From NCBI GenBank assembly GCA_963662285.2, contig CAXXMV010000002.1, positions 1,408,001-1,472,000 of the forward strand: a stretch of DNA of 64,000 nt. The letters run 5' to 3'. Every line of letters starts with the position of its first letter. The stretch's first letter is position 1. Below are positions 46,640 through 64,000 of the stretch, one piece after another. The notes beneath the pieces are model-generated. The model worked only from the letters and a program-made list of their open reading frames with translations. It made no database searches and had not been told where the DNA came from. The position numbers and the translations under genes are program-made. This stretch comes from a bacterium. GTDB lineage: Bacteria; Hinthialibacterota; Hinthialibacteria; Hinthialibacterales; Hinthialibacteraceae.

Positions 46640-48646
46640 CTATGTATCTTCATATTTATCTCGAAAACGATTTTTGAGTTTAGATTTTTCACTATCCCTA
46701 AGTCGTTCAGCAAAAACATCCTCGCTGACGAAAGTGGATTCACTGGACTTGGAGGGAAGATTGAGCAAGGTGTTATAACGATTCATGATCTCCCGGCTCA
46801 ATTCTTTGGGATAATCTGGATTTGATTCATTCATTTCACTTTCGGTAAGGTTCTGACAAGCTTTTTGATATAAATATGGATGTTCTTTCTCTACCCATTT
46901 CAAACCATTACCATGCATTAATTCTTTAATAAACGATAATCGGGAATGTACATCTTTCGAGGATTTCATGGTTTTTTCGAATCGCATTGCTGGATAACGG
47001 GCTAGAAAAGTATTGAGTAAAAGTGGACGCATTAAATCAGGCAGTTTTATTTTAGGAAAATTTGACAACAAATCCTTAATCGCAACAGCCTTATACTTTT
47101 GACGATTAAATACCATAGATGGATTGAAACTATCAATAACGCCAAATTGATTTTTTATTCCAAAACTGGTAAGCAGCGAAAAAGTACCATAGTCCGGCAG
47201 CTGCAGCAAGGGAACCACACGCAATGACCAGCGGTTGTAATAATGTAAAAGATGCTCTCGGTATTGATGGACTTCCATCCAATAGTATATTGAACTGCGA
47301 TCTTCCGATGTGGATGCAGTGTCAGTCAATTCATTTGTAACAACCAGATTGACGTCCGGTTTATCCGGCACAGGAATCAAATCCATCGGTCCAAATACCA
47401 CCGCCTTGGGAATCTCTTGCCATTTCGCATAGTTCTGCAATTCAGCAATATGTTTTTTGATTGAATAATTAAGATGAGGATGTAATTTGGTATGCTTGAT
47501 AATCTCATTAATATTAAACACCGTAAGGAAAAGGCATGTTTCTAAAGATAGCCCGTCAAAACTACACCTGTATGCCTTCAAATCCTTGTTCTTAAATTCC
47601 TCATTCAGAAGATATTCCTTGGTCGAGGTGGATTCTTCTTCAGGATACTGGTCATTATAGGTATAGATATCACCATTTTGATTCAAACCGACAGGAAGCT
47701 TCTCATGCTCAGATGCTTCGTGCAACCGTACGGCAAAAGTCAGTTTGTCGGCTTTAATATTTTGCATGGCGGGTTTTAACAATAATTCATAAATATTCCC
47801 ATCCATTCCTTGATCATACATAAAAGATGCAATCTCTTGAAATCCTTCCATTTGTTTTAATATTGTGAAAAAATATTCTGGATGAGTGAGTATCTCTCGA
47901 ATAGTATTATTCAAGTTGCCTTCTTCACGGGTGGCCGTCAGGGGATGATATAAGTGAAGAGAGCCTTTCTCTCGAGTATGGAATACTCCGGTAATATAAA
48001 TTTTAGATACTTCAGGCAAGTCATCCACCAGCACTTTTGCTTTTGCTTGCCGAATGTCTTTGTTAATATCTTTCAATTCACCGGTTTTATCTGGTTCGAT
48101 TACCTGCTTGAGGTCCTTTGATGCAGCCGTATCGGGTTCATCGGATTTTTCAGTAGTTTTTGATTCTTGATTTTTTGAGATGGTTTGTGATTTTTCATCA
48201 GATGGAGAAAAATCAGTTACAGGAGATTTATAACTTTTTGAAGGTTGACCGATTGCCTTGGCGATGGAAGAACATATCATTTCTTGAGTCATAAATTGTT
48301 TTATGATGTATCCTTTGGCGCCAAGACTAATCGAGGTGCGGACTGACTCATTTCTATTATCGACCGTCAACATGATAATAGAAATATCTTCATCAATTTC
48401 CCGCAGCAAAGGCAAAATAGTTAAACCGCTTCCCAAGGGCATGTTAATATCAAGAAGAACTACGTCGGGGCGATGGGTTGATATCTGATTAACAGATTCC
48501 ACTCCCGTTCCAGCAGTGCCGCACACATTACATCCCTGCTTCTCAAGTAAAGGTTTGACGATATGAATAATGGCTTCATCATCGTCGCAAATAACTATCT
48601 TCAAGTTTTTTAATTGTGGATAACTCTTGTTCATGTCAGCGTTCAT
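46640..48646 (-). CDS. Response regulator: N-terminal receiver plus a large C-terminal domain of unknown function
   Basis: IVICDDD, VVLLDINMP, IIMLT and GYIIKQ; charged linker; unrecognised C-terminus of about 450 aa. ATG 48646 has AAGGA upstream. Confidence 0.8.
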   Translation of the reverse strand: MNADMNKSYPQLKNLKIVICDDDEAIIHIVKPLLEKQGCNVCGTAGTGVESVNQISTHRPDVVLLDINMPLGSGLTILPLLREIDEDISIIMLTVDNRNESVRTSISLGAKGYIIKQFMTQEMICSSIAKAIGQPSKSYKSPVTDFSPSDEKSQTISKNQESKTTEKSDEPDTAASKDLKQVIEPDKTGELKDINKDIRQAKAKVLVDDLPEVSKIYITGVFHTREKGSLHLYHPLTATREEGNLNNTIREILTHPEYFFTILKQMEGFQEIASFMYDQGMDGNIYELLLKPAMQNIKADKLTFAVRLHEASEHEKLPVGLNQNGDIYTYNDQYPEEESTSTKEYLLNEEFKNKDLKAYRCSFDGLSLETCLFLTVFNINEIIKHTKLHPHLNYSIKKHIAELQNYAKWQEIPKAVVFGPMDLIPVPDKPDVNLVVTNELTDTASTSEDRSSIYYWMEVHQYREHLLHYYNRWSLRVVPLLQLPDYGTFSLLTSFGIKNQFGVIDSFNPSMVFNRQKYKAVAIKDLLSNFPKIKLPDLMRPLLLNTFLARYPAMRFEKTMKSSKDVHSRLSFIKELMHGNGLKWVEKEHPYLYQKACQNLTESEMNESNPDYPKELSREIMNRYNTLLNLPSKSSESTFVSEDVFAERLRDSEKSKLKNRFRDKYEDT

Positions 48647-48744
48647 GACATTTTCCTTAGAGACTTTCTTATTCAACTAATATAATAGAGAGCGTTTACG
48701 CAATAGGATCATTATAGTATGTTTATAAATGATTTAATAAAAAA

Positions 48745-51700
48745 TCACCATTTAAGCCAACCGCCCTTTTGACGGCGGTTCAGCGCTTTCAATACCACCG
48801 AAGCATTTTGTAGACTTATGCGTTGTCGAATTAAATCCTTATATACTCTTTTGGCCATGCGTTGCCGTTTAATAGCATCATAACCATCGATAAAACTCTC
48901 AATAAATTCTATAATGCCAGTAAGAAAAATTCCTCCTTTACGACTACTTGTTCCCTCTAGATTTTCATATATTTTTTCAAGTTGGATTTCCAGGTTTCTA
49001 GATATTACATTTTGAAAAGCCTGGATATCTTCCCGTTGAGCCGCAAGTGAGGTTTTCAAGTAATCCAAAGTTTCCCGAACAGCGATTTCGCTTAGCAGTC
49101 CGAATTCCTGAAAATTAGCTAGTTCCGTTAAGCCGTCGAGCATAAGAGAAACATCTTCTTGCTGGGCCCTCTGACATGCCTGATGGCATTTATCCCAGGC
49201 CTGCCATCGGTATACGAAATCCAAGCCTGTACCCTTGATATTTTGTATGCCCATAATGTGGTTCAGGTATCCGGGAGGCGTTGACTCGCAGATGGTATGA
49301 ATGACTTCTTCTCCAGATGCATAATAATCATCAATTACAACAAACTTTGAAAAGAAACGATTGGTCAGCAATTTTTTGAGTTCCTGCAAAACTGCAGGAT
49401 CAGACGAATCATTGCTTAGAACTTTCTGTTGTATTGATTCATACTGTTGATAGCTATCCCGTTCCTGCTCAAAATAGCGTTCAATATCTTGCGCAATATC
49501 AACAGGCAAAACTGACGAAAGAACCGAAGATAGTGAATCGGGATCACTTATTATTTGATCAACAACCTGCTCTGCAGGAGGATTATCCACTGCATCCAAC
49601 ATGCTGCTAAGCGCGGATTTAAGCATGTTTTCTGTATAGGGGATGCGGAATTTTTTGGCATACATCAGCAATACATCCTCAGGAGGAGTAACTTTATCCT
49701 GACGTTGGATGCTTAAGGTAATTGTATCTGCATATTGTTCCCAGGCTTCCCGGATGTATCCCATCATCCCCTTCAGGTTGCCGCCGATGAGATAATGACG
49801 ATCAGCGCTTAGGTCATTAACCAGCATCGAGGCGAAGACCCGTGAACGTGGGATGCGGTCAGCGCGATTATTTACTACAGTTGTAACCCAGACGCCCGGA
49901 TCATTTTCCGGATCGTATTGGTGAAATCCCAATCGCGTCCAATTCTCTATGCAACCACGACGCTCGTTGGCCGACATGCCATTTGAGAAATCCAGTTTAC
50001 GACGGTTTAGTTTCGCTGTGGGATGTACTTTCAGTACTCCCAAATCAGGAATGACGTAATCCGCCATTTCTTTTAAGGCGAAATCACGGTCAATCCCCAA
50101 TTCCTCTGCTAAAGAAATCACCAAAGCCACATTAAATGGATGTTCCTTGTATGGAAAACGATCCAATACATCATCAGTCAGCATACCGGCTTCCAACCAG
50201 CCGACAGTATGAAATCGGGTTTTAAATTCTTGACTGGCGTCATGAAGAAGGGGTTTCATTTGTTCCTCACTGGTCAACAGCACCGAGTGTTTAGGAATAA
50301 AACACGTCATCACTTGAGGTATATTAATACCCGCAGGTCCTTGAACATCTTCATGGTCTGGATATGTATTGGTTATCGTGGAAAAATCATCTCTCATCCA
50401 TTTTTTCTGCAAAATCTCAACATAGGAGGGCGTTAATCCCATACATTCCCAAAGATAAACTTCGGAATTAAGACGTGATGCCAAATGAACCACGTCTTTC
50501 TGTTCCCATATCGTAGCCTTGTCATAAGATCGAAAAATAAAGAGTTCGTGCAATCGACCAAAAGTATGACCAAACATAAACATCGCTTCACAACCGGTGG
50601 TTTTGGAAAATACTTGAAATCCACTGGAATTTAACAAGGCGGCTTTTAAACGTTCAGTCCCCGATTTGCCACGGGTTCCCCAACCTCCCATAACCAGAGG
50701 AATTGATTGTCGGGCTTTTTGTAGTCTTCGATAGAGAAGCCAATGATTACCTAAAAATAAAAGCGTTATTGCTACTAGAAATATACTAAGTTCAAATAGA
50801 GAATTTTCGTAAACCGATAGAAAATAATTTAGAATACGTTCTCCTAAACCTTGTAATTCCAGCATCGGAAAGCTCAAAGGAAAAAAACGCTCAATCATTG
50901 GATCGGGAACAGCCTGTTTTTCTTCAATGGTATTATAGGATCGAAAATTGATTCGGAATCCTTTTTGACGCATGGCCTGAATATACTGGCGTGGATCTTT
51001 ATTGCTGGTTTCGCTCCAATTACGCATTTGCGCAAGTAATGCGAAATTAAAAGTAAGGCTTATATAAGCCCATAAGCGGGTCGGCCAAAAACGGGGCGCC
51101 CGGATTTCGGTGATTCCTTCATGCGTATAAAATCGAACTGGTCGATTACGCAATGTATTCAAACAAGAAAGAAAGTCATCCGCCAACGGCAAGTATGGCC
51201 GCCAGCCGTTTTCAGTAGGAATAAAAAGCGGTTCTCCCGGTACTTTGGTTTCTGAAAGTTCCGCCAGAATTGCTGAAGGAGCGCGGATGGAACTGTGCGA
51301 CACGCGTCCGATTGTATGATTAAAGGCCTGTCTTTTATCCGATGACGGATGGCGTAATTCATATATCATTCGCCATAAGCGAAAGCGGAAAACAAAACCA
51401 CGGGTTATGCAGGGTCTCAAAAAACCTCTCTTAAAATCAAGCCCGAAATCGTCCTGGGATAAAACCGCCAATACTCGACCGATAAAATCGTCACTTAATC
51501 CCTTAAACCATTTGCGTGGAATACGACGACTGCGACCAGGAGGAATTGCCTTAATAATGCTTTCCAGTTTTTCCTTCAGTTTTCTCGCCTCAGCGTTGGT
51601 ATTACACCAGATTTGCTCCAATCCCATAGAAGCCCAACGTCGCACCGAAAGAGAGGTTGCGTTAATATGGAGATAGTCCAGGCGCTCCACGGCCATAGCA

Positions 51701-52908
51701 AAAAACGAATCAGCGTTCTCACTTGGATTATGAGACATATATAATCCAATGACGGCGGCGGCGTGAATGGCTGTCCGGAGAACGAATTCATCGGTTTCAT
51801 GAGTGTATATCTCTCGCAGAATATCTATAGCAAAAGAAGCCGCATCTGCCCGTTTAATAACTTCTATGCAACCTAAAGCCGCGCTGGCGCGCACCTGGGC
51901 CACGTCATCTTCCAGTGAAAGTTTTCGATAGTAAACTTTCAGATCATCCATAGAAGACTTCTGCAGGGATTGCGCCACGCCCTGTCGAACAAAAGGACTG
52001 GGGTCGTCTACCGCATAAATGAATAAATCGGCTAATTCGGGAATGCGGCTCAGGTTTTCGCCTATAATTTTTACAGCCCGGCGACGAACAAACATATCAC
52101 TATCAATACCCGGATGTTCCAGCCGCCTGCGTAGCACTTTTTTAAGCGAAGAACGAGACATGCTTTCGAGTAAAGAAAGCGCTTCGCATTGAATCCAAAC
52201 TGCCTGGCTGGATTGCAGTGAGGCGCGATAAACAAATTGTATGGTGGCGTCATCCACATAATTTTCTAAGATTTCATCAGGCAATTCGCGTAGATGAATG
52301 GATAGCGTTTTGAAAGCTGCGATCCGCACCCGGTCATCACCTTCATAAATCCAAAAGATTTTGTTCCATTTATCAAATTCGAATGAGCGCCATAGCCTTT
52401 CAATGGCATTCAGCCCGTTAGCGCGTCTTAGTAGCATGGGCCCCAACACGCAAAGCCGATCCATGCACAAGACCAACATACGCTCAATCTCACCTTGCAT
52501 TTGCTTGCATCTATCATGCATGACGTCTGCATCCATCCAACGCTTGAAGGCCTTTTTATCTTTTCTAAGATCGCGTTCGGATGAGCCTAACTTTCGGGCG
52601 TAGTCTAAGATATGCTGTTGGCGTTCCCCCGGCGTTTTTGATTGTGATAGCTGCTGATTGAAATCTGTGCTAAGAATTTTTACTTCTTTCAAGCGTGTGA
52701 ATTGCAGGATTATTTCTCTTTTAATAAATTCGTAGACTTGCATTACAGTATGATCATCATCCAGGTAGACCGATGATTTATCCAACTTTCGTTCTGGCCA
52801 TTCCAGAAAGTTCTTCGCTATCTGGTGGATAAGTTTGGCGTGAATCCGTTTTTGATGCGGTCTCATGCCATTTTCGAGCAACGCAACGATGCTGGATTTT
52901 TCACTCAT
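48745..52908 (-). CDS. pgsB: HEAT-repeat-fused poly-gamma-glutamate synthetase PgsB/CapB-like (Mur-ligase family) protein
   Basis: After a TM helix come GTRGKSGTERL, SKTTG, WECMGLTPSY, TNTYPDHEDVQGP, PDLG, NGMSANE, NNRADR and GIQNIKGTG, the ordered PgsB/CapB motifs. N-terminal HEAT-like repeats: DRVRIAA, FVRRRAV, DPSPFVRQGVA, QVRASAA, SVRRWA. Confidence 0.85.
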   Translation of the reverse strand: MSEKSSIVALLENGMRPHQKRIHAKLIHQIAKNFLEWPERKLDKSSVYLDDDHTVMQVYEFIKREIILQFTRLKEVKILSTDFNQQLSQSKTPGERQQHILDYARKLGSSERDLRKDKKAFKRWMDADVMHDRCKQMQGEIERMLVLCMDRLCVLGPMLLRRANGLNAIERLWRSFEFDKWNKIFWIYEGDDRVRIAAFKTLSIHLRELPDEILENYVDDATIQFVYRASLQSSQAVWIQCEALSLLESMSRSSLKKVLRRRLEHPGIDSDMFVRRRAVKIIGENLSRIPELADLFIYAVDDPSPFVRQGVAQSLQKSSMDDLKVYYRKLSLEDDVAQVRASAALGCIEVIKRADAASFAIDILREIYTHETDEFVLRTAIHAAAVIGLYMSHNPSENADSFFAMAVERLDYLHINATSLSVRRWASMGLEQIWCNTNAEARKLKEKLESIIKAIPPGRSRRIPRKWFKGLSDDFIGRVLAVLSQDDFGLDFKRGFLRPCITRGFVFRFRLWRMIYELRHPSSDKRQAFNHTIGRVSHSSIRAPSAILAELSETKVPGEPLFIPTENGWRPYLPLADDFLSCLNTLRNRPVRFYTHEGITEIRAPRFWPTRLWAYISLTFNFALLAQMRNWSETSNKDPRQYIQAMRQKGFRINFRSYNTIEEKQAVPDPMIERFFPLSFPMLELQGLGERILNYFLSVYENSLFELSIFLVAITLLFLGNHWLLYRRLQKARQSIPLVMGGWGTRGKSGTERLKAALLNSSGFQVFSKTTGCEAMFMFGHTFGRLHELFIFRSYDKATIWEQKDVVHLASRLNSEVYLWECMGLTPSYVEILQKKWMRDDFSTITNTYPDHEDVQGPAGINIPQVMTCFIPKHSVLLTSEEQMKPLLHDASQEFKTRFHTVGWLEAGMLTDDVLDRFPYKEHPFNVALVISLAEELGIDRDFALKEMADYVIPDLGVLKVHPTAKLNRRKLDFSNGMSANERRGCIENWTRLGFHQYDPENDPGVWVTTVVNNRADRIPRSRVFASMLVNDLSADRHYLIGGNLKGMMGYIREAWEQYADTITLSIQRQDKVTPPEDVLLMYAKKFRIPYTENMLKSALSSMLDAVDNPPAEQVVDQIISDPDSLSSVLSSVLPVDIAQDIERYFEQERDSYQQYESIQQKVLSNDSSDPAVLQELKKLLTNRFFSKFVVIDDYYASGEEVIHTICESTPPGYLNHIMGIQNIKGTGLDFVYRWQAWDKCHQACQRAQQEDVSLMLDGLTELANFQEFGLLSEIAVRETLDYLKTSLAAQREDIQAFQNVISRNLEIQLEKIYENLEGTSSRKGGIFLTGIIEFIESFIDGYDAIKRQRMAKRVYKDLIRQRISLQNASVVLKALNRRQKGGWLKW

Positions 52909-52985
52909 TACCTAACCTCAACCATTGTGTCTGATTTCATGGTTTTATAAATTATCCTGTATCTATTCACTGTTTTTGCAATCGA

Positions 52986-55900
52986 TTATTCCTCGATAAA
53001 TAATGGCATACATCTTTCCCGCAAGTCCATGAAATCCAATTCACCCGGCTTGAAATCGCGATAGGCGCGTGCGCTGCCGAAATGCCAGGTCAGGAAAATG
53101 TTGGCTGTTGCGTCTTTGTTATCGATATCATATCTGACGCTCCCCCCTAATTCGATACGCTTGCGTTTACCCATCCAAAAATCATGCAGTAGATCCAGCG
53201 AAATCGCTTTACGGGTAGTCGTGGATTTACGATCATCATCATTCAGAAAGTGATTTAAATGAAAAGTGGTGGATATTTCGGTATTTCGCAACCTTTGTTT
53301 CCAACCAGTTTTGAAATAAAGGTGATCCGGTTGTTGGGATTTAAATAATTCATTCGTGGCCAGGCCGCCAATGGTCCACCATTCTGAATCCTGCCAGGGT
53401 CTATAGCGCAGAGTGTCCGATATTCGAAAACCATTTTGATGTTGTTGTTTGTATGGCGTGTAGATATCCTGATCCAGCTGCTGGAGACCGAAAGCAGAAG
53501 ATGGGTTTAAACTTAAATGCCTGCTGAAGAAGGATAGTCTTGGCGTATGCCGTAATGTAGGCGACAGTTCGATTGAGCGGCTTACGCCCATACGTAAAAC
53601 GGCAGACATTTCCAAATCTTCACGCGAAGAGTTTGAGGTGTCATCAATATCCTGCACATACAACTCTCCCCCGTAATTAAAAGTCCAGGGCGTCCAGTCA
53701 GGGGCGTAGCGAATCTCTTCTATTAAACCAAGGGTAGGGCCGCCAGGCGAGCGATAACGAGTCAATACTTCATTTTGAAAAAATGTATTCCAAGGCTCAT
53801 GATAATATCTATAAGCAACGTTTGTTTCAATGTAATCATCAAAATCTGCATTACGCTCAAAGTCTTCTTCTATAATGCGGCGCCTACGACCCTCGGTTGT
53901 CAGCGACCATGTTCCATTATACCGTTCTTCCACAGGCCCTGAGAGCCATTGTTTTTCAAGCAATTCTTCTGGATATTCATCCAACTGAACCAATGTTTCA
54001 GAGACAGGAATAGCTTCTTTTTCAATAAGATTAGGAGAGGCCTCTGGCTTGATCTCATTGGGCGTCCTATTAAAAATACGGTAGAATCCTTCTTCCCGGT
54101 CCGATTCAGGTTTGATGTAAACCTTCTGCAATCCCTCCTCAACATAGCGGTATTTCAATATTGTAGTTGTTCCCTGTAGTTCATCGATTCGCAACCAGGT
54201 CGGCCCCTGAATGTTCAGCTCAATGGGTTCTGTTGCAGTTGCAACATGATAAAAACGTTGGTTTGTTGGTACTAAAGAGTCAGGTGAAATCGTTTGTTCC
54301 TCACCTGGATGGTTCACATAGGTTTTCTTTACAACGACATATTGATTCACAACAGGATTCAGCGTCCAACAACGGAAGGCGTGTTCACCTGTTGGAATAG
54401 TGACTTGAATCCTTGCCGAAGGTGATTCCTGGTTAAGTTCGATAGTATTTTCCTGCCCGTCATCAATTTGATACGCAATGTTCATTGGCAATACTGGTAA
54501 ATAGTCTGGAACTTGCAGCGAAAAATCAATCTGTATATCAGTTGGATTATGATTGAGCATATAAAGTCCCAGGCTTTTATCGCCAAATATGACTTCTTCA
54601 TCCTTGAGGAGTGGTTGAATCAAGTTTTTGCGAACTTGCAATGTTGGACTTTCCGGCATCCAACCGGATGTTTCTTCAAAATGTGAACCGGCATTATGCT
54701 CTACGCTGGTGATCCGTTCCCAACTCAGATTACTTGTTAAGCGCGTGTAGAGAGATTGCATATTGGGAATATGTTTGTTTTCCCAATATAATTTCTCACC
54801 CAGCATTTGGGCATGAAATTTATATTGCGGAAATTGCTCGGCAATCCAAAGCAGATCAGTCATTCTTTGTATTGCATCTTTCTTTTCCTCAACAAAGTTC
54901 CTTAAAACTATTGAAGGATCAATATCTTTATTTGAACTCTTTTCATGAAGGATCAAGAAATTTTCCAGCTTTTTTGAGGAGAATGCTTGTATGTTCAATT
55001 GAGAAGAATAGGTTAGGGGTGAATATATATTCAATAAACTAATACTATCAGTAGCCGAAGCAGGGATTAACGAAATGGTAAAATTCATTGAGTCAGTAGC
55101 ATCCAAAGGAGAAGGAACATACTTTCCCGAAATAGCGGCTTCGATAGTTTGCGGCGTGATAGGAGGAAGGATGCCTAGGGGATGACGTGGCGCACGATAA
55201 GCCGCACGCACAAAAAGTTCAGAATGTAATGCATTAATTTCTATCCGATGTCGCCCTTGTTCTATTTCAATAACAGCATCGACATAGTTTCCCACTAGTT
55301 GCTCTTCACTCGAGATCAAGCGCATTGCATTGTTCGGCATATTGTTGGTGATGGGTATCCGCTGAATTTGATCCCCGGTCTTGATCATAATCCAATCATT
55401 CAATGGCGTATCAGGTTGACTCAGATAAAGCGGTCGAATCTCTAATTGAAGTGTAATAGGACCTTGCGCTTCATAAATCACAGGTTGATCTGAGTTAGCG
55501 AAATAGCCATGGATAAACAAATCCCGGTCAATATTGTATAACCTACCAGCTCCAGCTGAGGTATTAATCAACGTATCCGCTGAACGCCATTCCTTGTTTG
55601 CGGGAGATGAGTTCCAGTCTTTTTGCCATTGCTGAATGGATTGCAATCGTTGATCCACTTCCTGAGAAGATAAGCCTGCGGCAATCCGTTCCTGCTCTTC
55701 TATGTCATCGGCTAACATAGACCCTTGATTGTCCGACTGGAGGAGCAATCGCTTGGTTTCTGTCATCTGTCCTAAAGCAAGCGCTTTGCGTCCCGACCAA
55801 TACGCCTTACGCTTTGGCGATGCAATTGTTTGCGCGACGCGGTCAAAAATGCGAAACCATTGGATTTTCAACGCGGTTTCCAGAAGAGTCTCGCTGGCGT

Positions 55901-58382
55901 CACCCATCATTGCAGCGGCGTGAGCGGCCAGGAAAGCAAATTCCGGTTTATCATCTTGCAGCAACGCTTTAGCCAGTTCGGTATAGTTTTCGCAACTAGG
56001 GTCATCATACAATGCCGCAGCGTAAAGTTGAACAACGCCATTCCAGTCATTTTCTCCACGCCGTAGATCTAACAGTTTTTGAAAAGCCTTTTTACGGAAT
56101 TGAGGATCATTTTCATAAGACCAAATTCCCCGGTATTGTTGCTTGGCCAGGAAAAACTCGCCCAAATGCTCCAATATCCGGGCGCGGCCAAGAAGGGCTT
56201 CCTGACGATGGGATTCACTTGAACTTTCAGTGCCATGCAGCAGTGAATTCCAATAGGATAAGGCCGTGATCCATTGCTCTGTTTTTTCATGTTCCAACGC
56301 CAGGTCATAAAGTTGAGTTGCTTGAAGAGCCGTGTACTCATCATTTTTGTTCACTTTGGATCTGATTGGTGGTTCAACCGATGCCGATAAAGTTATTGCG
56401 CTTTTACTTAAATAGCGAAGAAAAGGCAGCCAATGGTTGTAGATTTGCTGTTCATCTTCTGTATTGCAAGACAATTCCAATGATGTTTTATAAATATCAA
56501 TTTCAGTTAACTTGGTGAAAAAATCGGGAGAAAGCTGATCCATATGATGCAGGTATTCTCCTTCCGGAAGCTGGAAAGGTTTCGAGGCGCGGTAAGCAAG
56601 CGAAACATGAAGATTATCTTGTATCTCATCATCTCTCCATAGTTTTACAGTTTGAGTATTAGCAGGAAGAGGTATCTCTGTATAATGAACTTCGCTTAAT
56701 TGCGCAGGTGGATCGAAGCGGGAAAAACCACCGCTTAGTGAAGCGCCGCGATAGTTGGGATTCATACGATTCAAGATGGCAAGACTTTCTCCTATAGGAG
56801 AAATTTCAAAATCATCATCGCTAAGAGAAACCTCTGCAATTAGATCCAGCCTTTGAGGTGGAACGTCATCCAATTGAATCAAAAGTCTATGTTTTGCAAG
56901 ATTATTCTCATGGCTTAATACCGCCACTCTCAATTGGCTGGGAACCGGGAGAGAAGGAATTGCGTATTCAAAAGGCTCGCCATCATTCTTCTTTAATTCA
57001 ATAAAACGTCCTAAATGCAAACGCTTGATCCATTGTTGCAGTTGTGGTTCATATAGCGATCCGCCATAAGGTAATGAGTCCCAGTTTTTTAATCGTTTTG
57101 GAATATAATAAGCATGAGAAAAATGAATGGATTGGTGGGAATTATCTGGCGAGAGTTCCCTGTAGAAAGTATTCCTGCTTTCAATAGATATCGCCTGATC
57201 CAAGAGTTCATCGGCGAAAGGTAAATGACTGGCGGCTTTGCGATAGAGAGCCGCGCTGGATAATCCGCTATCACGGCGAGAATTATCATGCAGAACACCA
57301 CGGGAAGCGCTTTGTAAGCCGGGCAGCATCGCCGGTTCTATCGCTTTGTTTAGCAAACCTGTAATCGTACCATAAAAGTCCAGCTGATTTGTTTGCTGAG
57401 GTGGATTTGATAGTAATGAAAACACTTTTTCTGCAGCAAGAATCGGTTGGTTTAAGTTAGGAAATAGATAGTCTTTTTCGGTAATGCCCGACACGCGTAC
57501 AAACAGTGCACGATTGGCATTCAACTCAATTGCGTCCATGCCGGATGGAATTGTTAGAAATCCTTTACGAAGTTGTCCTAATACCCGGATTTGATCATTC
57601 ACCAAATATGAATACCGGGTATCCGTATTTGTATCAAAATCCATAGTTGCTATCACATTATTATTATTCTGGACAGAAAGGCGATATGGTTGAGAAGGTT
57701 CAATCATATCCTCCTGATATGGGAGATAGGTTTCTATCGATATTCTCAGTAATTGATCTAAACTGAAATGTAAGGGGATGTCCGGTTCAAGCCGGTAAAA
57801 CTCCTCAGAATCAAAACGATCATCTCTTCGGATTTGGATAGGTTCAGCATCCGGTAATGCAGGCTGACTATAAGGCGCCGGATTTCTAAGGCGTTCCACA
57901 GCAGAAATAAAAACCGCCAGTTCCAATGGATGATTATAAACTCCGTTATGCTGAATGCGCATTATTCCAGGATAATTCAAATCAGGTTTATAAAACCGGG
58001 CGCCATTATCTCCATGCAGGACGGGAAAACATTGTGTATAAATACCGGAACCGTTGGAATAGGAGACATCTAAATAAAATTCTGGATCGTAATTATCAAT
58101 AGGTAATATTCTTAATGCAGCCCGGCCCGGCATCTTAAAACGAATGGATTGGCCCGGCGTCATGCGCACAACATATTTATTTTTATGATACTTGATTTGC
58201 GGTTTATAGCCCAAAAAGCAATCAGGTTTATCTATGATGTTATCCCAGATAACTGGATGTTGATATGCATTTTCTAATTCAAGTTGAAACGCATCTACCT
58301 CTGAAAAAACATAGAGTAAATTGCATCCCGAAAGGATTACCAAAAATCCAGCCCAAAATAACAATAATTTTAATCGACGCAT
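52986..58382 (-). CDS. Very large predicted lipoprotein with beta-rich modules, central TPR-like repeats and a probable C-terminal outer-membrane beta-barrel
   Basis: Lipobox LSGC at residue 20; TPR-like helices (EALLGRARILEHLGEFFLAKQQY, ELAKALLQDDKPEFA); alternating amphipathic strands in the last ~300 aa. Confidence 0.7.
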   Translation of the reverse strand: MRRLKLLLFWAGFLVILSGCNLLYVFSEVDAFQLELENAYQHPVIWDNIIDKPDCFLGYKPQIKYHKNKYVVRMTPGQSIRFKMPGRAALRILPIDNYDPEFYLDVSYSNGSGIYTQCFPVLHGDNGARFYKPDLNYPGIMRIQHNGVYNHPLELAVFISAVERLRNPAPYSQPALPDAEPIQIRRDDRFDSEEFYRLEPDIPLHFSLDQLLRISIETYLPYQEDMIEPSQPYRLSVQNNNNVIATMDFDTNTDTRYSYLVNDQIRVLGQLRKGFLTIPSGMDAIELNANRALFVRVSGITEKDYLFPNLNQPILAAEKVFSLLSNPPQQTNQLDFYGTITGLLNKAIEPAMLPGLQSASRGVLHDNSRRDSGLSSAALYRKAASHLPFADELLDQAISIESRNTFYRELSPDNSHQSIHFSHAYYIPKRLKNWDSLPYGGSLYEPQLQQWIKRLHLGRFIELKKNDGEPFEYAIPSLPVPSQLRVAVLSHENNLAKHRLLIQLDDVPPQRLDLIAEVSLSDDDFEISPIGESLAILNRMNPNYRGASLSGGFSRFDPPAQLSEVHYTEIPLPANTQTVKLWRDDEIQDNLHVSLAYRASKPFQLPEGEYLHHMDQLSPDFFTKLTEIDIYKTSLELSCNTEDEQQIYNHWLPFLRYLSKSAITLSASVEPPIRSKVNKNDEYTALQATQLYDLALEHEKTEQWITALSYWNSLLHGTESSSESHRQEALLGRARILEHLGEFFLAKQQYRGIWSYENDPQFRKKAFQKLLDLRRGENDWNGVVQLYAAALYDDPSCENYTELAKALLQDDKPEFAFLAAHAAAMMGDASETLLETALKIQWFRIFDRVAQTIASPKRKAYWSGRKALALGQMTETKRLLLQSDNQGSMLADDIEEQERIAAGLSSQEVDQRLQSIQQWQKDWNSSPANKEWRSADTLINTSAGAGRLYNIDRDLFIHGYFANSDQPVIYEAQGPITLQLEIRPLYLSQPDTPLNDWIMIKTGDQIQRIPITNNMPNNAMRLISSEEQLVGNYVDAVIEIEQGRHRIEINALHSELFVRAAYRAPRHPLGILPPITPQTIEAAISGKYVPSPLDATDSMNFTISLIPASATDSISLLNIYSPLTYSSQLNIQAFSSKKLENFLILHEKSSNKDIDPSIVLRNFVEEKKDAIQRMTDLLWIAEQFPQYKFHAQMLGEKLYWENKHIPNMQSLYTRLTSNLSWERITSVEHNAGSHFEETSGWMPESPTLQVRKNLIQPLLKDEEVIFGDKSLGLYMLNHNPTDIQIDFSLQVPDYLPVLPMNIAYQIDDGQENTIELNQESPSARIQVTIPTGEHAFRCWTLNPVVNQYVVVKKTYVNHPGEEQTISPDSLVPTNQRFYHVATATEPIELNIQGPTWLRIDELQGTTTILKYRYVEEGLQKVYIKPESDREEGFYRIFNRTPNEIKPEASPNLIEKEAIPVSETLVQLDEYPEELLEKQWLSGPVEERYNGTWSLTTEGRRRRIIEEDFERNADFDDYIETNVAYRYYHEPWNTFFQNEVLTRYRSPGGPTLGLIEEIRYAPDWTPWTFNYGGELYVQDIDDTSNSSREDLEMSAVLRMGVSRSIELSPTLRHTPRLSFFSRHLSLNPSSAFGLQQLDQDIYTPYKQQHQNGFRISDTLRYRPWQDSEWWTIGGLATNELFKSQQPDHLYFKTGWKQRLRNTEISTTFHLNHFLNDDDRKSTTTRKAISLDLLHDFWMGKRKRIELGGSVRYDIDNKDATANIFLTWHFGSARAYRDFKPGELDFMDLRERCMPLFIEE

Positions 58383-58518
58383 GGCAGCATTATTTCCGGC
58401 GCGAAGCCTTTATTTCTGAATGGTCTCTATTTCAATTATCGTACTGCATATACTTTTTCAGGCATAAAACAAAACTCTATCAATCGTCAGTAAATAAGTG
58501 ATTGAGCAATGATCAAAA

Positions 58519-59466
58519 TCATCCCCCATTAATAAAACAACTCAAAAAATCAGCTCGTAAATCTTTTTGATCACGTAAGCGCTTGCGGAATGTGCGGCTC
58601 ATCTCTACATGAAAAAATTGATCTGAATCATGTTGTTGATATGCCTTGGCAGCGATGTTCTGGGTTCCACCGAGTTGAAAAACATGAATGGGAAATACTG
58701 CGACGCGAATGGCTTGAAATTTTGGCAGGCATTTTGATATCTCATACAATTTCGCAGAGGGTTGCAACCCGCCATTACTCAAAATAATATCCTCGACCAA
58801 GGTCTCACCATTTCGTTTTATAACGGGACCAAAACCGTGTAACTGCAGCACGGATAGCGCTGGCTTCGCATCAACCGCTGCTAGTGTCAGTGCGTGAAAA
58901 AATGAAGTCTTCTCCTTGCCAAAATCCACTTTGTTACGGTGCACCGTATTCCATGCGCCAACCCTGGCCTGACTTTCCAGGAATAAACGCACAGCAATAA
59001 GCCCGGTATAGTAGTCATGATAACGATGCGGCGCCTGGATTATCAAAGGGACGCTTGACTCAACGCGAAAAATGAAGAAGCCGTAAGGCGCCGTATGCTG
59101 AGTATCCGGGCTTAGAACCCAAAGAGTCTCATCATTATAGATAATCTCATGCAATTTATACCCCGCATCACTCCATTGTTTTTCCATCTCAGTCTTTTCA
59201 ACTGATTGAGTCAGCATCTGCTTAAATAACTTCCAGGCGCATTGGAACTGGTCTGGAGATGGAGCAACGTAATCAACTTTGCTTTTGGATTGGTTAAACA
59301 ATTGCAATAAGAGTTTTTCACCAGTTTCTGCTAAGACTGGCGCTCCGGAAAACAGAACAATTAGAAGTGATATCCCAATCAATCGTAATGAAGATATCTT
59401 TCTTTTACTGGAACCGGGATTTTTCCAATGAAATAAATTATCAGATACTATATTGAATAAAAACAT
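58519..59466 (-). CDS. Secreted putative zinc hydrolase, remote gamma-PGA hydrolase (PghP)/N-formylglutamate amidohydrolase-like
   Basis: Signal peptide ending VLA; ordered motifs QAPHRYHD, LQLHGF, LGGTQN and HVEMSRTFR. Confidence 0.6.
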   Translation of the reverse strand: MFLFNIVSDNLFHWKNPGSSKRKISSLRLIGISLLIVLFSGAPVLAETGEKLLLQLFNQSKSKVDYVAPSPDQFQCAWKLFKQMLTQSVEKTEMEKQWSDAGYKLHEIIYNDETLWVLSPDTQHTAPYGFFIFRVESSVPLIIQAPHRYHDYYTGLIAVRLFLESQARVGAWNTVHRNKVDFGKEKTSFFHALTLAAVDAKPALSVLQLHGFGPVIKRNGETLVEDIILSNGGLQPSAKLYEISKCLPKFQAIRVAVFPIHVFQLGGTQNIAAKAYQQHDSDQFFHVEMSRTFRKRLRDQKDLRADFLSCFINGG

Positions 59467-59495
59467 GTCTCACCTTTTTTATCTTAATATTAAAA

Positions 59496-62009
59496 TTATT
59501 GCCTCTTAATTGTATCACGACTTTCAGTAAAAAAATTACGCTGTTCCTCCAGACCGGGAAGAATGCGTGAGAGTATCACATAGCCGGGATTACTACTCAA
59601 TAATTCCAGGCGGATGCGATATTCCCCAGGCGGCATATCAGCCCTGAATGGCAGGAAAAACAATTGTCCTTGATCAACAACTTGATCCTTGGTATTTAAC
59701 ACATAGGTCTGCGAGTCTTCCGTAGACGCCAAATCATATAGCCGATGAGTCATCGTCCAAGAAGGGAACGGTCCTGGATTCAACCTACGAAAACCACCTT
59801 CAATCGTTATCTTTATTAAGTTTCGCTTAGTCGTTCCATACTCAGAAAAATACCGGATGGAAAGAGTCTCTTCGTCAGGAATGATTTTAGGGAAAATATA
59901 TTCCAACGGTTGCGCTTCCAGTCGGGCAGCCAAACGCTTCTCAAATAATTTTCCACTGGCAGGACGGCTGTGGTTAATCAGAAATAAAGCAGCTCCATCT
60001 GAATTAATCCGGATTTTATGTTTTCCAACTGTTATGGGTGGAAGAATTACCTGCATACGTTTTGAGGTGAGAACTGATTGGTGAATAACGGCGCCATCTA
60101 TTTCAAGAATATAAGGTATAGATTTTGATTCTTGAGAAAATATCATCAAAGTAGGTGTTATCTGACGCTCCTTAATTGGCGAAATGAAGGTCCATGTTAC
60201 TTCTCGCCCATTAGGAATCTCTTGATAGATTGAAGGCAGCGATTCATCACGCCGGATGTCTTTTGCCTGAGTCGGCGCGAGTAATTCACGGCCGCGCCAG
60301 CGGTTAACTGGTTGAAAACTCTCCCACTCATACAATCCTTCCGCCAGATAATCCTTATCTTCCGGCGGTCGAGTTTGATAGGCGATAGGAATTACCAATT
60401 GTGATCGCATCATAACTTGCTGGTTACTCGGTGGTAGATAAAACCAACTGCGGCGGTGTATCTCTTTCTGGTTGAAACGAATGTAATCTTCCGGTACCAT
60501 GGTTTGTTGGACAAGATTTTGCGGTCGATTGTAGCATGACGCTAAAAAGGGATTCTGCTCTGCTGTAATCCGTAACTTTTTCATCTTGGAAGAAATGGAA
60601 AAATAGTAGGATACAGAGTCGCTGACCGACGGGAAAATTTCCACCTTCGGTATGCTGTCATATTGCGAGGCCTCTGACGCAATGGCTAACCGTTCATGCT
60701 TGATCACATTATCTTCTGCATCCAGAAACTGACATATAGCAAAGGCATTACGTGAATGATTCTCTTCGCCATTCAACGCATAGGGAATGCGGAAATCTAA
60801 CCGAATCGGCGTAATACCCTCTGACTCTGATAAAATTTCATATTCAGCGGTTGCATCTTGAATTAAGAATGTACGAACATAGTTTGTATCAGGAGTGATT
60901 TCAGATTCTTTATTATCTTCACCGGAAAAATACGCCCGCGCAACCATATTGCATGGTGAAATTATCTCCAATAATCCTCCCGGCCATTGAGATGAAACAG
61001 TGGTAGATGAAATAATGGAAGATAATCGCATCTCCTCTCTCTCATCAAAACTGCGGCCATATTTTTTTAATACAATTTCTGGAGAAGCGGAATTCACTAC
61101 AGCGCCTTCTTCTTTGATAAATTCCAAGCGTATCTGACCCTCCTGATCAGGCAGCGGAATCATTGCATGTTGACCTGGATGTATGAACAAACCAGTCGGG
61201 AGAATTTTATTCTCTTCGACAGGATCGCCGATTTCATCAAGTACATGCATATTGCGTAATTGAAAATCTACGCCTTGTACTCCGGCAGGCGCCAGTCTAT
61301 CAGTCAGGCTTTTTAAGATATTAAGTTGTTCATCTTCGGTAAGTAGATCATAAGAATATACATTCCCTTGCGACAACTGTTCTTTCGCGCTGCGGGACAG
61401 CCTTCGCCATTGGTATCTAAGACGTTTGCTTGAGAATGGTTTCTGGATGTTCATGCGTAGACAAACATCCACCAGCGGAGTAGGGAGTATTCCCTGGCGA
61501 ATTTGGATGCCGCTAATCTGTTGATCCGGGGGCGCCAGGTTAGTTAATTTGAGACGAAAGGCCTGACCATCTAATGGCTTGATTCTTTCGTCTATATAAA
61601 ACGCCTTCGCGTGAGTTTGGTTGGTCTCGGCGTCAAGGTACTCTGTATACTGAGATCGGCAGTAATATTCTCCGTTTCTAACTGTTTCTCCCTCCGGATT
61701 TATTAAGCGATACTCAATCGAATAATTCCAGACATCATCCGGCGCCGCATCATGTTTCAAAGGGAGATTGGCGTTTGTGATAAGAGTAACAGATTCCAGG
61801 CCTGGCGGAAAATTAAAAACCATCCAGTCGTCAGGTTTTAATACAAATACGCCTAAGGAACGTGAACCTTCTATCAGTTGGCTTTCATATTTACTTACAT
61901 AGGATCTAACCAACCGATCCCAATGATCGGTGTGAAAGAAATAAATTCCTCCGGATAGCAATAGAAAGTAAAATAATATGCGCACTTTCATGGATTCACT
62001 GAATTCCAA
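59496..62009 (-). CDS. Hypothetical protein with an N-terminal membrane anchor and a large beta-rich extracytoplasmic region
   Basis: 837-aa ORF; single hydrophobic segment ILFYFLLLSGGIYFF; overlaps the upstream gene; no catalytic motif recognised. Confidence 0.75.
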   Translation of the reverse strand: MEFSESMKVRILFYFLLLSGGIYFFHTDHWDRLVRSYVSKYESQLIEGSRSLGVFVLKPDDWMVFNFPPGLESVTLITNANLPLKHDAAPDDVWNYSIEYRLINPEGETVRNGEYYCRSQYTEYLDAETNQTHAKAFYIDERIKPLDGQAFRLKLTNLAPPDQQISGIQIRQGILPTPLVDVCLRMNIQKPFSSKRLRYQWRRLSRSAKEQLSQGNVYSYDLLTEDEQLNILKSLTDRLAPAGVQGVDFQLRNMHVLDEIGDPVEENKILPTGLFIHPGQHAMIPLPDQEGQIRLEFIKEEGAVVNSASPEIVLKKYGRSFDEREEMRLSSIISSTTVSSQWPGGLLEIISPCNMVARAYFSGEDNKESEITPDTNYVRTFLIQDATAEYEILSESEGITPIRLDFRIPYALNGEENHSRNAFAICQFLDAEDNVIKHERLAIASEASQYDSIPKVEIFPSVSDSVSYYFSISSKMKKLRITAEQNPFLASCYNRPQNLVQQTMVPEDYIRFNQKEIHRRSWFYLPPSNQQVMMRSQLVIPIAYQTRPPEDKDYLAEGLYEWESFQPVNRWRGRELLAPTQAKDIRRDESLPSIYQEIPNGREVTWTFISPIKERQITPTLMIFSQESKSIPYILEIDGAVIHQSVLTSKRMQVILPPITVGKHKIRINSDGAALFLINHSRPASGKLFEKRLAARLEAQPLEYIFPKIIPDEETLSIRYFSEYGTTKRNLIKITIEGGFRRLNPGPFPSWTMTHRLYDLASTEDSQTYVLNTKDQVVDQGQLFFLPFRADMPPGEYRIRLELLSSNPGYVILSRILPGLEEQRNFFTESRDTIKRQ

Positions 62010-64000
62010 TCAAGCCAGGCGAATCGCGAGGCGATATATTTTTCTAGATTCTCTTCATTCATGACTTCAACTTGATAAATATTTTCAATCTTATCGTTGC
62101 GTGGATTCAAATTGACAACCAATGGTCTTTGTTCTGCGCCTGAACTCATGATTAAAAATGTTTGCATGGAATTGATATCAAATAAACGCGTAAACTGAAC
62201 CTCAGGATGCGTTTTCATCAGGTTTTGCAATGCGATAATATTACCTGTGCGCAAGTAATGGTTCACATCCTGAAATAACTCAACAGGAATTTGATCGGCT
62301 CCCGGATATTGACGGGCAGCGTCTAGCAGGTCATAAAGCACCGCTCGCTCAGTGGAAATATTAAGTGATGCGAAGTGACTTTCCTGCAATATGCTCTCGG
62401 TTTTGAGCCTGTAAGTTTTTCGAATTAATGGCGACAACCACAATCCAACAAACTCTTTATTCTCGGTCTGACGTAAATAATAGGCCTGCGATAAGTTGCT
62501 GGCCTCATACCCGGCAGTCTCCAGACTTCCATCCACCAGTTGGTATTTGAATTGATCTTCCTCCAGATAATCCAGAAACATCTTTCCCAAATATGAAAAC
62601 GACGATTGATCAATTGTACCATCGGCGAAAGAAACAATAGCTTCCGAGTCTGTAGTGGGAGCGTCCTGCCGTATACCGAATGCCCGGCAACTGATCACCA
62701 GCATCGGTTTTGATTTCATCTCTCGCAGTAATACCTGATTAACCAGATTGAGAAAATTGTTCTTGTTCTTCAGGCTGATGATATTTGCCGCCCCATCCAG
62801 GTTGCAATCTCGATGAGCGCCTGAAATCAATATAGCTCGAGCCTGGATGCGCTCGAACAACTCCACGCCATATTCAAAACTGTTCTGTTCATACAAGGGG
62901 CGGGTAACATGTACCAGAAATGGATTGCTTTTCTCTAGGCGGAACACAAACGTACCACGATAAGTGCGGGATTCGACTGCTTCTCTTTCTGTCAGAATCA
63001 AATAGTTTTGATTGGTTAATTTATGCCGATACCAGATAAAACGGTAACCAATAATCGAAGCAGCATTGGATATAGTATGAAATTCGGATAAACCGTCCGA
63101 TGTGAATGCTCCATCAACAAATTCGCTATCGATTATTTTGATAAGTGGAGTTACCACTTCCTGATCAAAATAAAGCATCTCATCTTCGGTTGGAGGTTTA
63201 TATAAATCAGAACCTTTATCAGCAATCTCTCCCTTTGTGTTCATTAACCAATCATACAGGTAGCCATCAATTCGAGTTACAAAGGTCTCCGGTTTAATTT
63301 CAGTCTTCTCATCCATCGCTTGAGCTAGCAGCGAACGCCGGTCTTTACGGTTTAGCCATAATTCCGCAAATCCCGACCATGTTAATTCACGCTGAATATT
63401 CTTAAACGGTCCATCTTTCCATTCAACGCGATATTCGCCAATCAACGATTTTAATATAGAGGGATTCAATCCCGCAGGAATTTGCGAGCGTATCCAAAGC
63501 GTACTATCAACATTGGTTGGATTGATAGCCTCTGTGATTCCGGTTAGAACGCGGATACTTTTTTCCGTATAACCCCGAATCTGCAACACATTACGCCGTG
63601 ACGCAATTTCGTGAAAAATATGGAAAAAACTACCTGGTTGAATCAATACATCTGACGAACCGTTTCGATTGATATTCCGCTTGGCGCCAGACGCCGCATA
63701 GGCCTTTCCATTAAGTGATTTCAATAGTATCAAACCAGACTCAAGCGTACGCCATTCCTCTATGGGTGAAGGAATTTCAACCAGCAACCCACTGTCTCTA
63801 GTATAATCAACCGCGTATATCCCCCATCCGTTCTCTGGCTGCTTTTCATGAAGATATAAATACTGATCCTCTACTCGCTCTACAATATAATTAGCCCGGT
63901 TTAAAAACAAACGCGCATTCAATAAATCTGCTTCATCATGCGTATGCGTGTATTTCATCAATAAGACAATGCCTTCTCTGAATTGGCTCTGTTCGTAGGG
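61988..64000 (-). CDS. 5'-truncated protein with two tandem degenerate copies of the hydrolase-like domain seen in 58519-59466
   Basis: Frame is open to the window edge (PYEQSQFREGIVLLMKY...). Repeat 1: GIYAV..GLLVEIPSPIEE..SFFHIFH..VLQIRGY. Repeat 2: GTFVFR..PFLVHVTRPLYE..NFLNLVN..VISCRAF. Confidence 0.75.
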   Translation of the reverse strand, partial: PYEQSQFREGIVLLMKYTHTHDEADLLNARLFLNRANYIVERVEDQYLYLHEKQPENGWGIYAVDYTRDSGLLVEIPSPIEEWRTLESGLILLKSLNGKAYAASGAKRNINRNGSSDVLIQPGSFFHIFHEIASRRNVLQIRGYTEKSIRVLTGITEAINPTNVDSTLWIRSQIPAGLNPSILKSLIGEYRVEWKDGPFKNIQRELTWSGFAELWLNRKDRRSLLAQAMDEKTEIKPETFVTRIDGYLYDWLMNTKGEIADKGSDLYKPPTEDEMLYFDQEVVTPLIKIIDSEFVDGAFTSDGLSEFHTISNAASIIGYRFIWYRHKLTNQNYLILTEREAVESRTYRGTFVFRLEKSNPFLVHVTRPLYEQNSFEYGVELFERIQARAILISGAHRDCNLDGAANIISLKNKNNFLNLVNQVLLREMKSKPMLVISCRAFGIRQDAPTTDSEAIVSFADGTIDQSSFSYLGKMFLDYLEEDQFKYQLVDGSLETAGYEASNLSQAYYLRQTENKEFVGLWLSPLIRKTYRLKTESILQESHFASLNISTERAVLYDLLDAARQYPGADQIPVELFQDVNHYLRTGNIIALQNLMKTHPEVQFTRLFDINSMQTFLIMSSGAEQRPLVVNLNPRNDKIENIYQVEVMNEENLEKYIASRFAWLDWNSVNP

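Follow-up and report, generated by a model that had tools for sequence, protein, structure and literature searches.

A five-gene operon pairing a PgsB-type ligase with an outer-membrane barrel: a candidate poly-gamma-glutamate secretion system of diderm bacteria

Synthase-dependent exopolysaccharide systems, among them those built around PelB/PelC, BcsC, AlgK/AlgE and PgaA, combine a polymerase-translocase in the inner membrane, a scaffold of helical repeats in the periplasm that carries an outer-membrane barrel at its C-terminus, and a periplasmic polymer hydrolase. The literature treats poly-gamma-glutamate (PGA), the product of the PgsBCA(E)/CapBCA(DE) machinery of Bacillus, as a polymer of Gram-positive bacteria and archaea. 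In its passages on PGA, a 2026 review of bacterial surfaces names producers from Bacillus and Staphylococcus only, and describes the way in which the chain reaches the cell exterior as not understood (PMC13721041). CapsuleFinder counted pairs of CapB and CapC in most phyla, Planctomycetes included, and the passages of its main text that deal with them do not mention accessory genes of the kind described here (PMC5542703). The present analysis concerns an operon of five genes, named g1 to g5 in their order of transcription, located at the end of a 64,000-nucleotide stretch of contig CAXXMV010000002.1 (assembly GCA_963662285.2), hereafter the window (G000:C2:1408001-1472000); the sequence past position 64000 was also read. 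Full-text literature searches brought up no paper on this operon.

The locus consists of five intact open reading frames (ORFs) on the minus strand, co-oriented and closely spaced, extending from position 48745 to 65233, with g1 running 1233 bases past the end of the window. The intergenic gaps are 77 nucleotides between g5 and g4, 136 between g4 and g3, and 29 between g3 and g2, while g1 and g2 overlap. In transcription order (g1-g2-g3-g4-g5, minus strand, from the ORF calls), with lengths in amino acids (aa), the genes are:
61988 to window-equivalent 65233 (L001:1489-4734:-), minus strand: g1, 1081 aa, with two CapC/PgsC membrane domains, a last transmembrane helix and two dead domains resembling g3
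59496-62009, minus strand: g2, 837 aa, an N-terminal membrane anchor followed by a putatively periplasmic protein of no known family
58519-59466, minus strand: g3, 315 aa, a predicted secreted protein with a zinc-hydrolase fold, candidate gamma-glutamyl hydrolase
52986-58382, minus strand: g4, 1798 aa, with a signal peptide, beta-rich regions on either side of a TPR-like stretch, and an outer-membrane barrel at the C-terminus
48745-52908, minus strand: g5, 1387 aa, with a HEAT-containing domain, a hydrophobic helix, a PgsB-type ligase and a C-terminal extension

With moderate confidence, we favour the reading that these genes encode a trans-envelope machine which makes PGA, or a closely related gamma-linked polyamide, and conveys it through the periplasm to an outer-membrane pore by which it leaves the cell. 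From the sequence we infer that the product would be gamma-PGA, leaving the cell through the barrel of g4. The wider proposal has, in our judgement, an even chance of being correct: that the operon represents the first synthase-dependent secretion system for a polymer other than a polysaccharide, namely an anionic polyamide handled by hydrolase-derived, arginine-lined chain holders and a dedicated 14-strand pore, and carried by at least 476 representative species belonging to many diderm phyla. The original prediction, drawn from the window alone, had seen in the five co-oriented, closely spaced genes a synthase-dependent PGA secretion layout for a diderm envelope, composed of a ligase with PgsB/CapB motifs, a lipoprotein with TPR repeats and a beta-barrel C-terminus, a hydrolase with a signal peptide, a membrane-anchored protein and a pseudo-hydrolase repeat protein. 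That layout is supported by the present results, and the individual attributions held up except for that of g4, which stood in part.

Like the Bacillus PgsBCA(E)/CapBCA(DE) systems, the operon has a PgsB-type ligase preceded by a membrane helix and a PgsC/CapC partner, the two being predicted here to dock. It differs from them in having neither PgsA/CapA nor PgsE, in a ligase enlarged at both ends, by a domain of about 690 aa with HEAT repeats at the N-terminus and by a conserved stretch of about 330 aa at the C-terminus, in a PgsC that occurs twice and continues into two dead hydrolase domains, and in the addition of three envelope proteins, an outer-membrane barrel among them; moreover, its hosts are diderm. 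With the Bcs, Pel, Alg and Pga systems it shares the overall layout, the g4 barrel aligning with PelB and BcsC and having AlgE as a Foldseek match, whereas its polymerase is an ATP-dependent amide ligase of the Mur type rather than a glycosyltransferase, and its barrel has 14 strands, is closest to CymA and OmpG, and is accompanied by a short and weak TPR part. Searches of the operon proteins against Pfam and NCBIfam recognised no glycosyltransferase, no PilZ or other c-di-GMP receptor, and no sequence homology to the Bcs, Pel, Alg or Pga families.

The synthase core is formed by g5 and the N-terminal part of g1. Three segments of g5 can be delimited:
51877..52101, minus strand: HEAT repeats, aa 270-344 (Pfam HEAT_2, E 2.4e-7)
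50734..50823, minus strand: hydrophobic helix, aa 696-725, from hydropathy
49747..50775, minus strand: PgsB amide-ligase domain, aa 712-1054 (TIGR04012, E 3e-60, model positions 4-331 of 380)

TIGR04012, the PgsB model, is the sole NCBIfam family matched by g5, with 204 bits against an equivalog cut-off of 222.7, and no Mur or FolC family of NCBIfam was matched at E <= 0.1, so that, by these family models, the ligase groups with PgsB, as originally proposed, and not with MurC-F or FolC. By sequence, g5 is thus a clear PgsB homologue, with a score that does not certify the same function. Its P-loop motif GGWGTRGKS and its PDHED motif are invariant in all 21 aligned family members, as are many positions in the N-terminal and C-terminal extensions. 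When the g5 family profile was compared with the PDB, neither a Mur ligase nor a PgsB chain appeared at E <= 0.01, the sole matches being designed alpha-Rep chains (E 1e-9), which back the HEAT repeats. The PgsB match is present as a single copy in the host genome. A shorter form of the ligase, of about 720 aa and devoid of the HEAT half, was also observed on long contigs (P0124, P0137, P0146, P0176, P0182, P0188); it is 56-66% identical over the ligase domain, the N-terminal half being either encoded separately or absent. A distant genome (L005, G036:C1:194657-195634) contains a PgsB-like frame of the classical length (392 aa, 29% identical) with one in-frame TGA.

PgsC, which had been missing from the prediction, was found beyond position 64000, fused at the start of g1. 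The N-terminus of g1 matches Pfam CapC (PF14102) in two stretches (E 6.2e-39, 133.6 bits against a gathering score of 27), placing CapC/PgsC domains at aa 24-159 and about 205-340, with the last transmembrane helix at about aa 342-362; against TIGR04011 it reaches 56.4 bits, the cut-off being 96.45. The full-length form of g1 was present in all five cultured carriers tested. TIGR04332 of NCBIfam was matched neither by g2-g5 and the in-window part of g1 at E <= 0.1, nor by full-length g1 at E <= 1.

When g1 aa 1-375 and g5 aa 690-1060 were modelled as a complex, the score was 0.69, compared with 0.00 for the best of three controls; of solved complexes 58 of 80 attained that mark, and of mismatched pairs 2 of 110, counts that are only rough given the custom alignments used. 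Three runs agreed in at least 79% of contacts, with a predicted local distance difference test (pLDDT) value of at least 75 for the partner. In the model, the g5 helix (residues 695-727) lies against g1 helices near residues 94-112 and 200-215, and a g1 loop rich in Lys and Arg (residues 77-91) contacts the ligase domain. The hydrophobic helix and ligase domain of g5 are accordingly modelled as docking on the membrane domain of g1; since sequence comparison with the PDB yielded no PgsB chain, the prediction is unlikely to have reproduced a structure already solved.

The putative hydrolase g3 has a signal-like helix at aa 27-45 and yielded a model of high confidence (pLDDT 88.3). Its Foldseek neighbours comprise structures of the formylglutamate amidohydrolase family, YndL bound to PGA, PghP, Csd4 and CCP5. 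With VIA-align, the best match was 2odf (Z 14.4, root-mean-square deviation (rmsd) 3.2, 182 residues aligned), followed by 2q7s (Z 12.7), both of the N-formylglutamate amidohydrolase family; then came the polyglutamate hydrolases, with YndL in complex with PGA (5onj) at Z 12.0, PghP (3a9l) at Z 11.5 and 21dc, counted with them, at Z 11.3, and finally the M14 carboxypeptidases at Z about 10. Only the fold search provided structural relatives, as the g3 profile found no match in the PDB by sequence; g3 likewise belonged to no family of Pfam (E <= 0.1) or NCBIfam, and so has no sequence membership in the PghP/YndL family, which we take to be PF05908. Across 29 sequences the invariant residues are H147, D151, T154, R177, D181, Q208, H210, G211, N270 and E288, a set that would fit a zinc site and a catalytic glutamate. 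The fold is shared with PghP/YndL and the N-formylglutamate amidohydrolases, and g3 keeps an invariant His/Asp/His/Glu set; PghP is described as acting via a zinc ion (PMC4497714). Compared with PghP/YndL, g3 differs in its first motif, H-x3-D, and in having an extra N-terminal helical part and a signal peptide, the likeness being one of fold only. Taken from the model, g3 is a candidate secreted gamma-glutamyl hydrolase, with a fold like that of PGA hydrolases and an intact set of metal-site residues.

Two copies of the same fold occupy the C-terminal 700 aa of g1, as detected by hhalign with the g3 profile:
63317..64000, minus strand, its start lying just beyond the window end: g1 pseudo-hydrolase repeat 1, aa about 403-639 (probability 97.3%, E 2.2e-11)
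62390..63217, minus strand: g1 pseudo-hydrolase repeat 2, aa about 673-948 (probability 98.4%, E 6.2e-15)

In both copies metal and catalytic residues are replaced. At the positions equivalent to H147, D151, H210 and E288 of g3, repeat 2 has R in 31 of 37 sequences, E in 33 of 37, R in 37 of 37 and W in 37 of 37, respectively, while repeat 1 has R at the H210 equivalent in 12 of the 15 sequences covering it. A loop rich in Lys and Arg (aa 325-337, from hydropathy and charge in nine full-length g1 sequences) precedes the last helix, and for this reason the dead hydrolase domains would face the periplasm.

These results bear on an explanation in which the PgsB/PgsC-like pair, instead of building a free homopolymer, decorates an acceptor in the envelope, such as a peptidoglycan stem peptide, a lipid or a protein, with single gamma-glutamyl residues or short chains, g3 being a trimming carboxypeptidase. 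Such a role would agree with synthase scores that both lie below the equivalog cut-offs, with an operon that does not include PgsA, and with the resemblance of g3 to Csd4, which is a cell-wall carboxypeptidase, and to CCP5, which deglutamylates tubulin (Z about 10). It would, however, hardly explain a tandem PgsC, two dead hydrolase domains of a chain-binding appearance and an outer-membrane barrel, and the structures closest to g3, once the formylglutamate amidohydrolase family is set aside, are those of true PGA hydrolases. We consider acceptor modification improbable, at roughly one chance in eight.

The outer-membrane protein g4 matched no family in Pfam or NCBIfam. Two of its regions can be placed on the window:
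53079..53912, minus strand: 14-strand outer-membrane beta-barrel, aa about 1491-1768, from the AlphaFold2 (AF2) model
55722..56114, limits approximate, minus strand: TPR-like stretch, about aa 757-887, from a profile match

The AF2 model of the last 379 residues (pLDDT 84.6) has 14 long antiparallel strands, and thus the beta-barrel C-terminus anticipated for this large protein was recovered with confidence. Foldseek retrieved OmpG (E 3e-11, target TM 0.65-0.69) and AlgE (E 2.4e-8), and an exhaustive VIA search gave CymA (Z 20.0), OmpG (Z 18.2) and CdiB and FhaC (Z 14.7), together with PelB (Z 15.5, rmsd 5.5, 249 aligned) and BcsC (Z 14.5, rmsd 4.7, 271 aligned). Most of the periplasmic part of g4 is beta-rich. 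Its description as a lipoprotein with TPR repeats was sustained only in part: the host copy does carry an LSGC lipobox, and the family profile of aa 670-940 matches designed consensus-TPR chains (E 7.8e-5 and 2.9e-4), but the lipobox occurs in the host g4 alone out of 26 aligned homologues, the others having ordinary signal peptides, and no Pfam TPR model reaches its gathering score. The best match of the whole-g4 profile in the PDB is a designed TPR at E 0.035. In 4 of the 26 homologues the N-terminal half contains OmpA or SPOR peptidoglycan-binding inserts (two of each), which place this half in the periplasm, beside the peptidoglycan. The inserts precede the TPR-like stretch (L010 aa 491-586, L012 aa 551-646, L051 aa 647-719, L045 aa 678-737).

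The remaining envelope protein, g2, has a single hydrophobic segment (aa 7-27), consistent with the N-terminal membrane anchor attributed to it, a core domain at aa about 50-260 and a 570-aa extension. Residues 267-635 weakly resemble residues 73-496 of g4 (hhalign 86%, E 5e-6), and neither Pfam nor NCBIfam gave a match. A word-based homology search returned the query alone, homologues surfacing through synteny and phmmer; two of these had only unnamed clusters in the Atlas, with a low-confidence model (pLDDT 0.64) and TM values of at most 0.41.

The closeness of the g4 barrel to CymA and OmpG, which are import channels, together with the hydrolase fold of g3, could suggest that the cluster serves to import and break down polyglutamate from outside the cell, which would enter through the barrel, be cut by g3 and be bound by the dead hydrolase domains. 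An intact ATP-dependent ligase with invariant catalytic motifs lies at the core of the operon, however, and is predicted to dock on the PgsC domains, and the operon has no recurrent neighbour that is a transporter or catabolic gene. Uptake is thus very improbable, and by far the least likely of the readings weighed here.

The genes occur in many lineages. A search of the protein collection at E <= 1e-3 gave 1570 relatives of the fused ligase of about 1400 aa, belonging to many diderm groups, and at least 476 species-representative genomes encode a relative (476 of 594 candidate stretches). Partner genes were surveyed by phmmer in 80 fetched loci, where g4 was found in 62, g2 in 51, g3 in 49 and g1 in 46; when the count was restricted to the 50 loci with at least 7.5 kb upstream, the respective figures were 44, 46, 44 and 44. 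The order g1-g2-g3-g4-g5 is nearly always kept, with ends that overlap or abut, and the gene immediately upstream of g5 is g4 in 60 of 69 testable loci. The co-occurrence on which the original prediction depended was found, in the same order and in many phyla, and chance adjacency of the five genes is rejected by the synteny counts. The full order is carried by Gamma-, Beta-, Alpha- and Deltaproteobacteria, Planctomycetes and Verrucomicrobia, while rearranged or partly seen operons occur in Acidobacteria and others. Cultured carriers include methanotrophs, halomonads, Marinobacter and Ramlibacter; Methylovulum miyakonense HT12, Halomonas daqiaonensis, Marinobacter daqiaonensis, Ramlibacter rhizophilus and Belnapia moabensis are examples. 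Rearranged loci were also noted (L017, L061, L078), and dispersed genes occur in the genomes of L017 and L079, where g4 lies on another contig.

In an alphaproteobacterial variant (L082, L085, L036) the order is kinase-g1-short g2-g3-g5. In the three genomes without g4, g2 is cut to about 250-535 aa, its core domain alone still matching, and the part of g2 lost alongside g4 is the one that resembles the N-terminus of g4.

The existence of a variant without g4 is one of the points in favour of a polyamide that is made but retained, either in the periplasm or attached to the peptidoglycan or the outer membrane, where it would form a layer with an osmotic, buffering or structural role, with g4 serving as an anchor or scaffold rather than as an exit pore. 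The peptidoglycan-binding OmpA and SPOR domains of some g4 homologues, the small size of a 14-strand barrel, and the many halophiles among the carriers (Halomonas, Marinobacter, Halovibrio) would fit the same explanation. Against it, the conserved open-type barrel with a long periplasmic arm reproduces the layout of the exporters PelB and BcsC, the two structures aligned above, and the position of g4 directly upstream of the ligase is kept in the large majority of testable loci. Retention is in our view unlikely, though the strongest of the alternatives to export, at about one chance in six.

Several observations weigh against export of PGA by this operon. At the level of the synthase, both scores fall under the NCBI equivalog cut-offs (PgsB 204 against 222.7; PgsC 56.4 against 96.45), and therefore the polymer could differ from classical PGA; g5 has one clear hydrophobic segment lying between two large domains that are both expected to be cytoplasmic; and neither PgsA/CapA (PF09587, PGA_cap) nor PgsE is found in the operon, the sole PGA_cap domain of the host genome sitting elsewhere, on contig 3. 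Regarding the envelope proteins, the best matches of the g4 barrel are the 14-strand solute channels CymA and OmpG rather than the polysaccharide exporters, which are larger; the signal for TPR repeats is weak, Pfam TPR models being sub-threshold in 5 of 26 g4 homologues and absent from the host copy; a conserved lipobox in g4, present in 1 of 26, had to be rejected; and fold searches with g2 were fruitless, its profile giving nothing below E 0.5 in the PDB. As for gene content, three loci (L006, L023, L032) have no g3 between g2 and g4, and the g4 barrel was not found anywhere in three alphaproteobacterial genomes, two of which are cultured isolates, so that the barrel is not indispensable. 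Finally, the operon was not found in any of the 19 genomes of the host's own family examined; its distribution is therefore patchy, and it probably spreads horizontally.

Export nevertheless remains the reading that we prefer, and its steps can be proposed as follows. Glutamate would be polymerised at the inner membrane by the PgsB-type ATP-dependent ligase of g5 together with the PgsC domains of g1, the ligase facing the cytoplasm and the chain going through the PgsC domains. On the other side of the membrane, the dead hydrolase domains of g1 would lie in the periplasm, where their arginines may hold the anionic chain without cleaving it. The periplasm would be spanned by g2, anchored in the inner membrane, and by the long periplasmic part of g4, whose barrel would serve as the exit of the polymer. 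The role of g3 would be to trim, release or clear the polymer, a task that falls to BcsZ, AlgL, PelA and PgaB in the polysaccharide systems. Output may be under the control of the two-component genes on either side, and possibly of the HEAT domain.

These flanking genes are the following:
46640-48676, minus strand: response regulator, 678 aa, directly downstream of g5 (Response_reg, E 5e-24)
L003:3341-6106, minus strand, outside the window: CHASE2 histidine kinase, 921 aa, directly upstream of g1 (CHASE2, E 3.8e-16)
39193-46562, minus strand: hybrid sensor kinase (1673 aa) and multi-receiver protein (783 aa), downstream of the operon's response regulator

The response regulator, with a receiver domain at aa 27-134 followed by about 540 residues to which no Pfam family was assigned, is a probable regulator of the operon, and the CHASE2 histidine kinase is likely a dedicated sensor, close relatives of which are found next to the operon in 8 of the 80 loci, either before g1 or after g5. 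Two-component genes are the sole other recurrent neighbours (19 of the 80 loci); no racemase, transporter or GGT was present as a conserved extra neighbour, and no family beyond two-component genes occurred in more than 4 of the 80 loci. In the 783-aa protein, several receiver-like stretches were judged by eye, and together with the response regulator and the 1673-aa hybrid kinase it would make a large signalling block adjoining the operon.

The host genome encodes a BamA match, and the host is therefore diderm. The match is split across two adjacent frames (G000:C1:992459-994773, 222.4 and 195 bits), which could reflect a frameshift, an assembly error or a real split.

If the proposed function is correct, the operon would show how a cell with two membranes makes and exports a PGA-type polymer, and polyglutamate-type capsules or slimes would be widespread among Gram-negative bacteria of the environment, a group not so far searched for them. 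Three unannotated protein families, namely g2, g4 and the dead-hydrolase module, would join the envelope toolkit, the last of them as a clear case of an enzyme fold converted into a binding module. As several carriers are cultured, the idea is directly testable. It may also be of relevance to the polymers of biofilms and sludge, and to the production of PGA in Gram-negative hosts.

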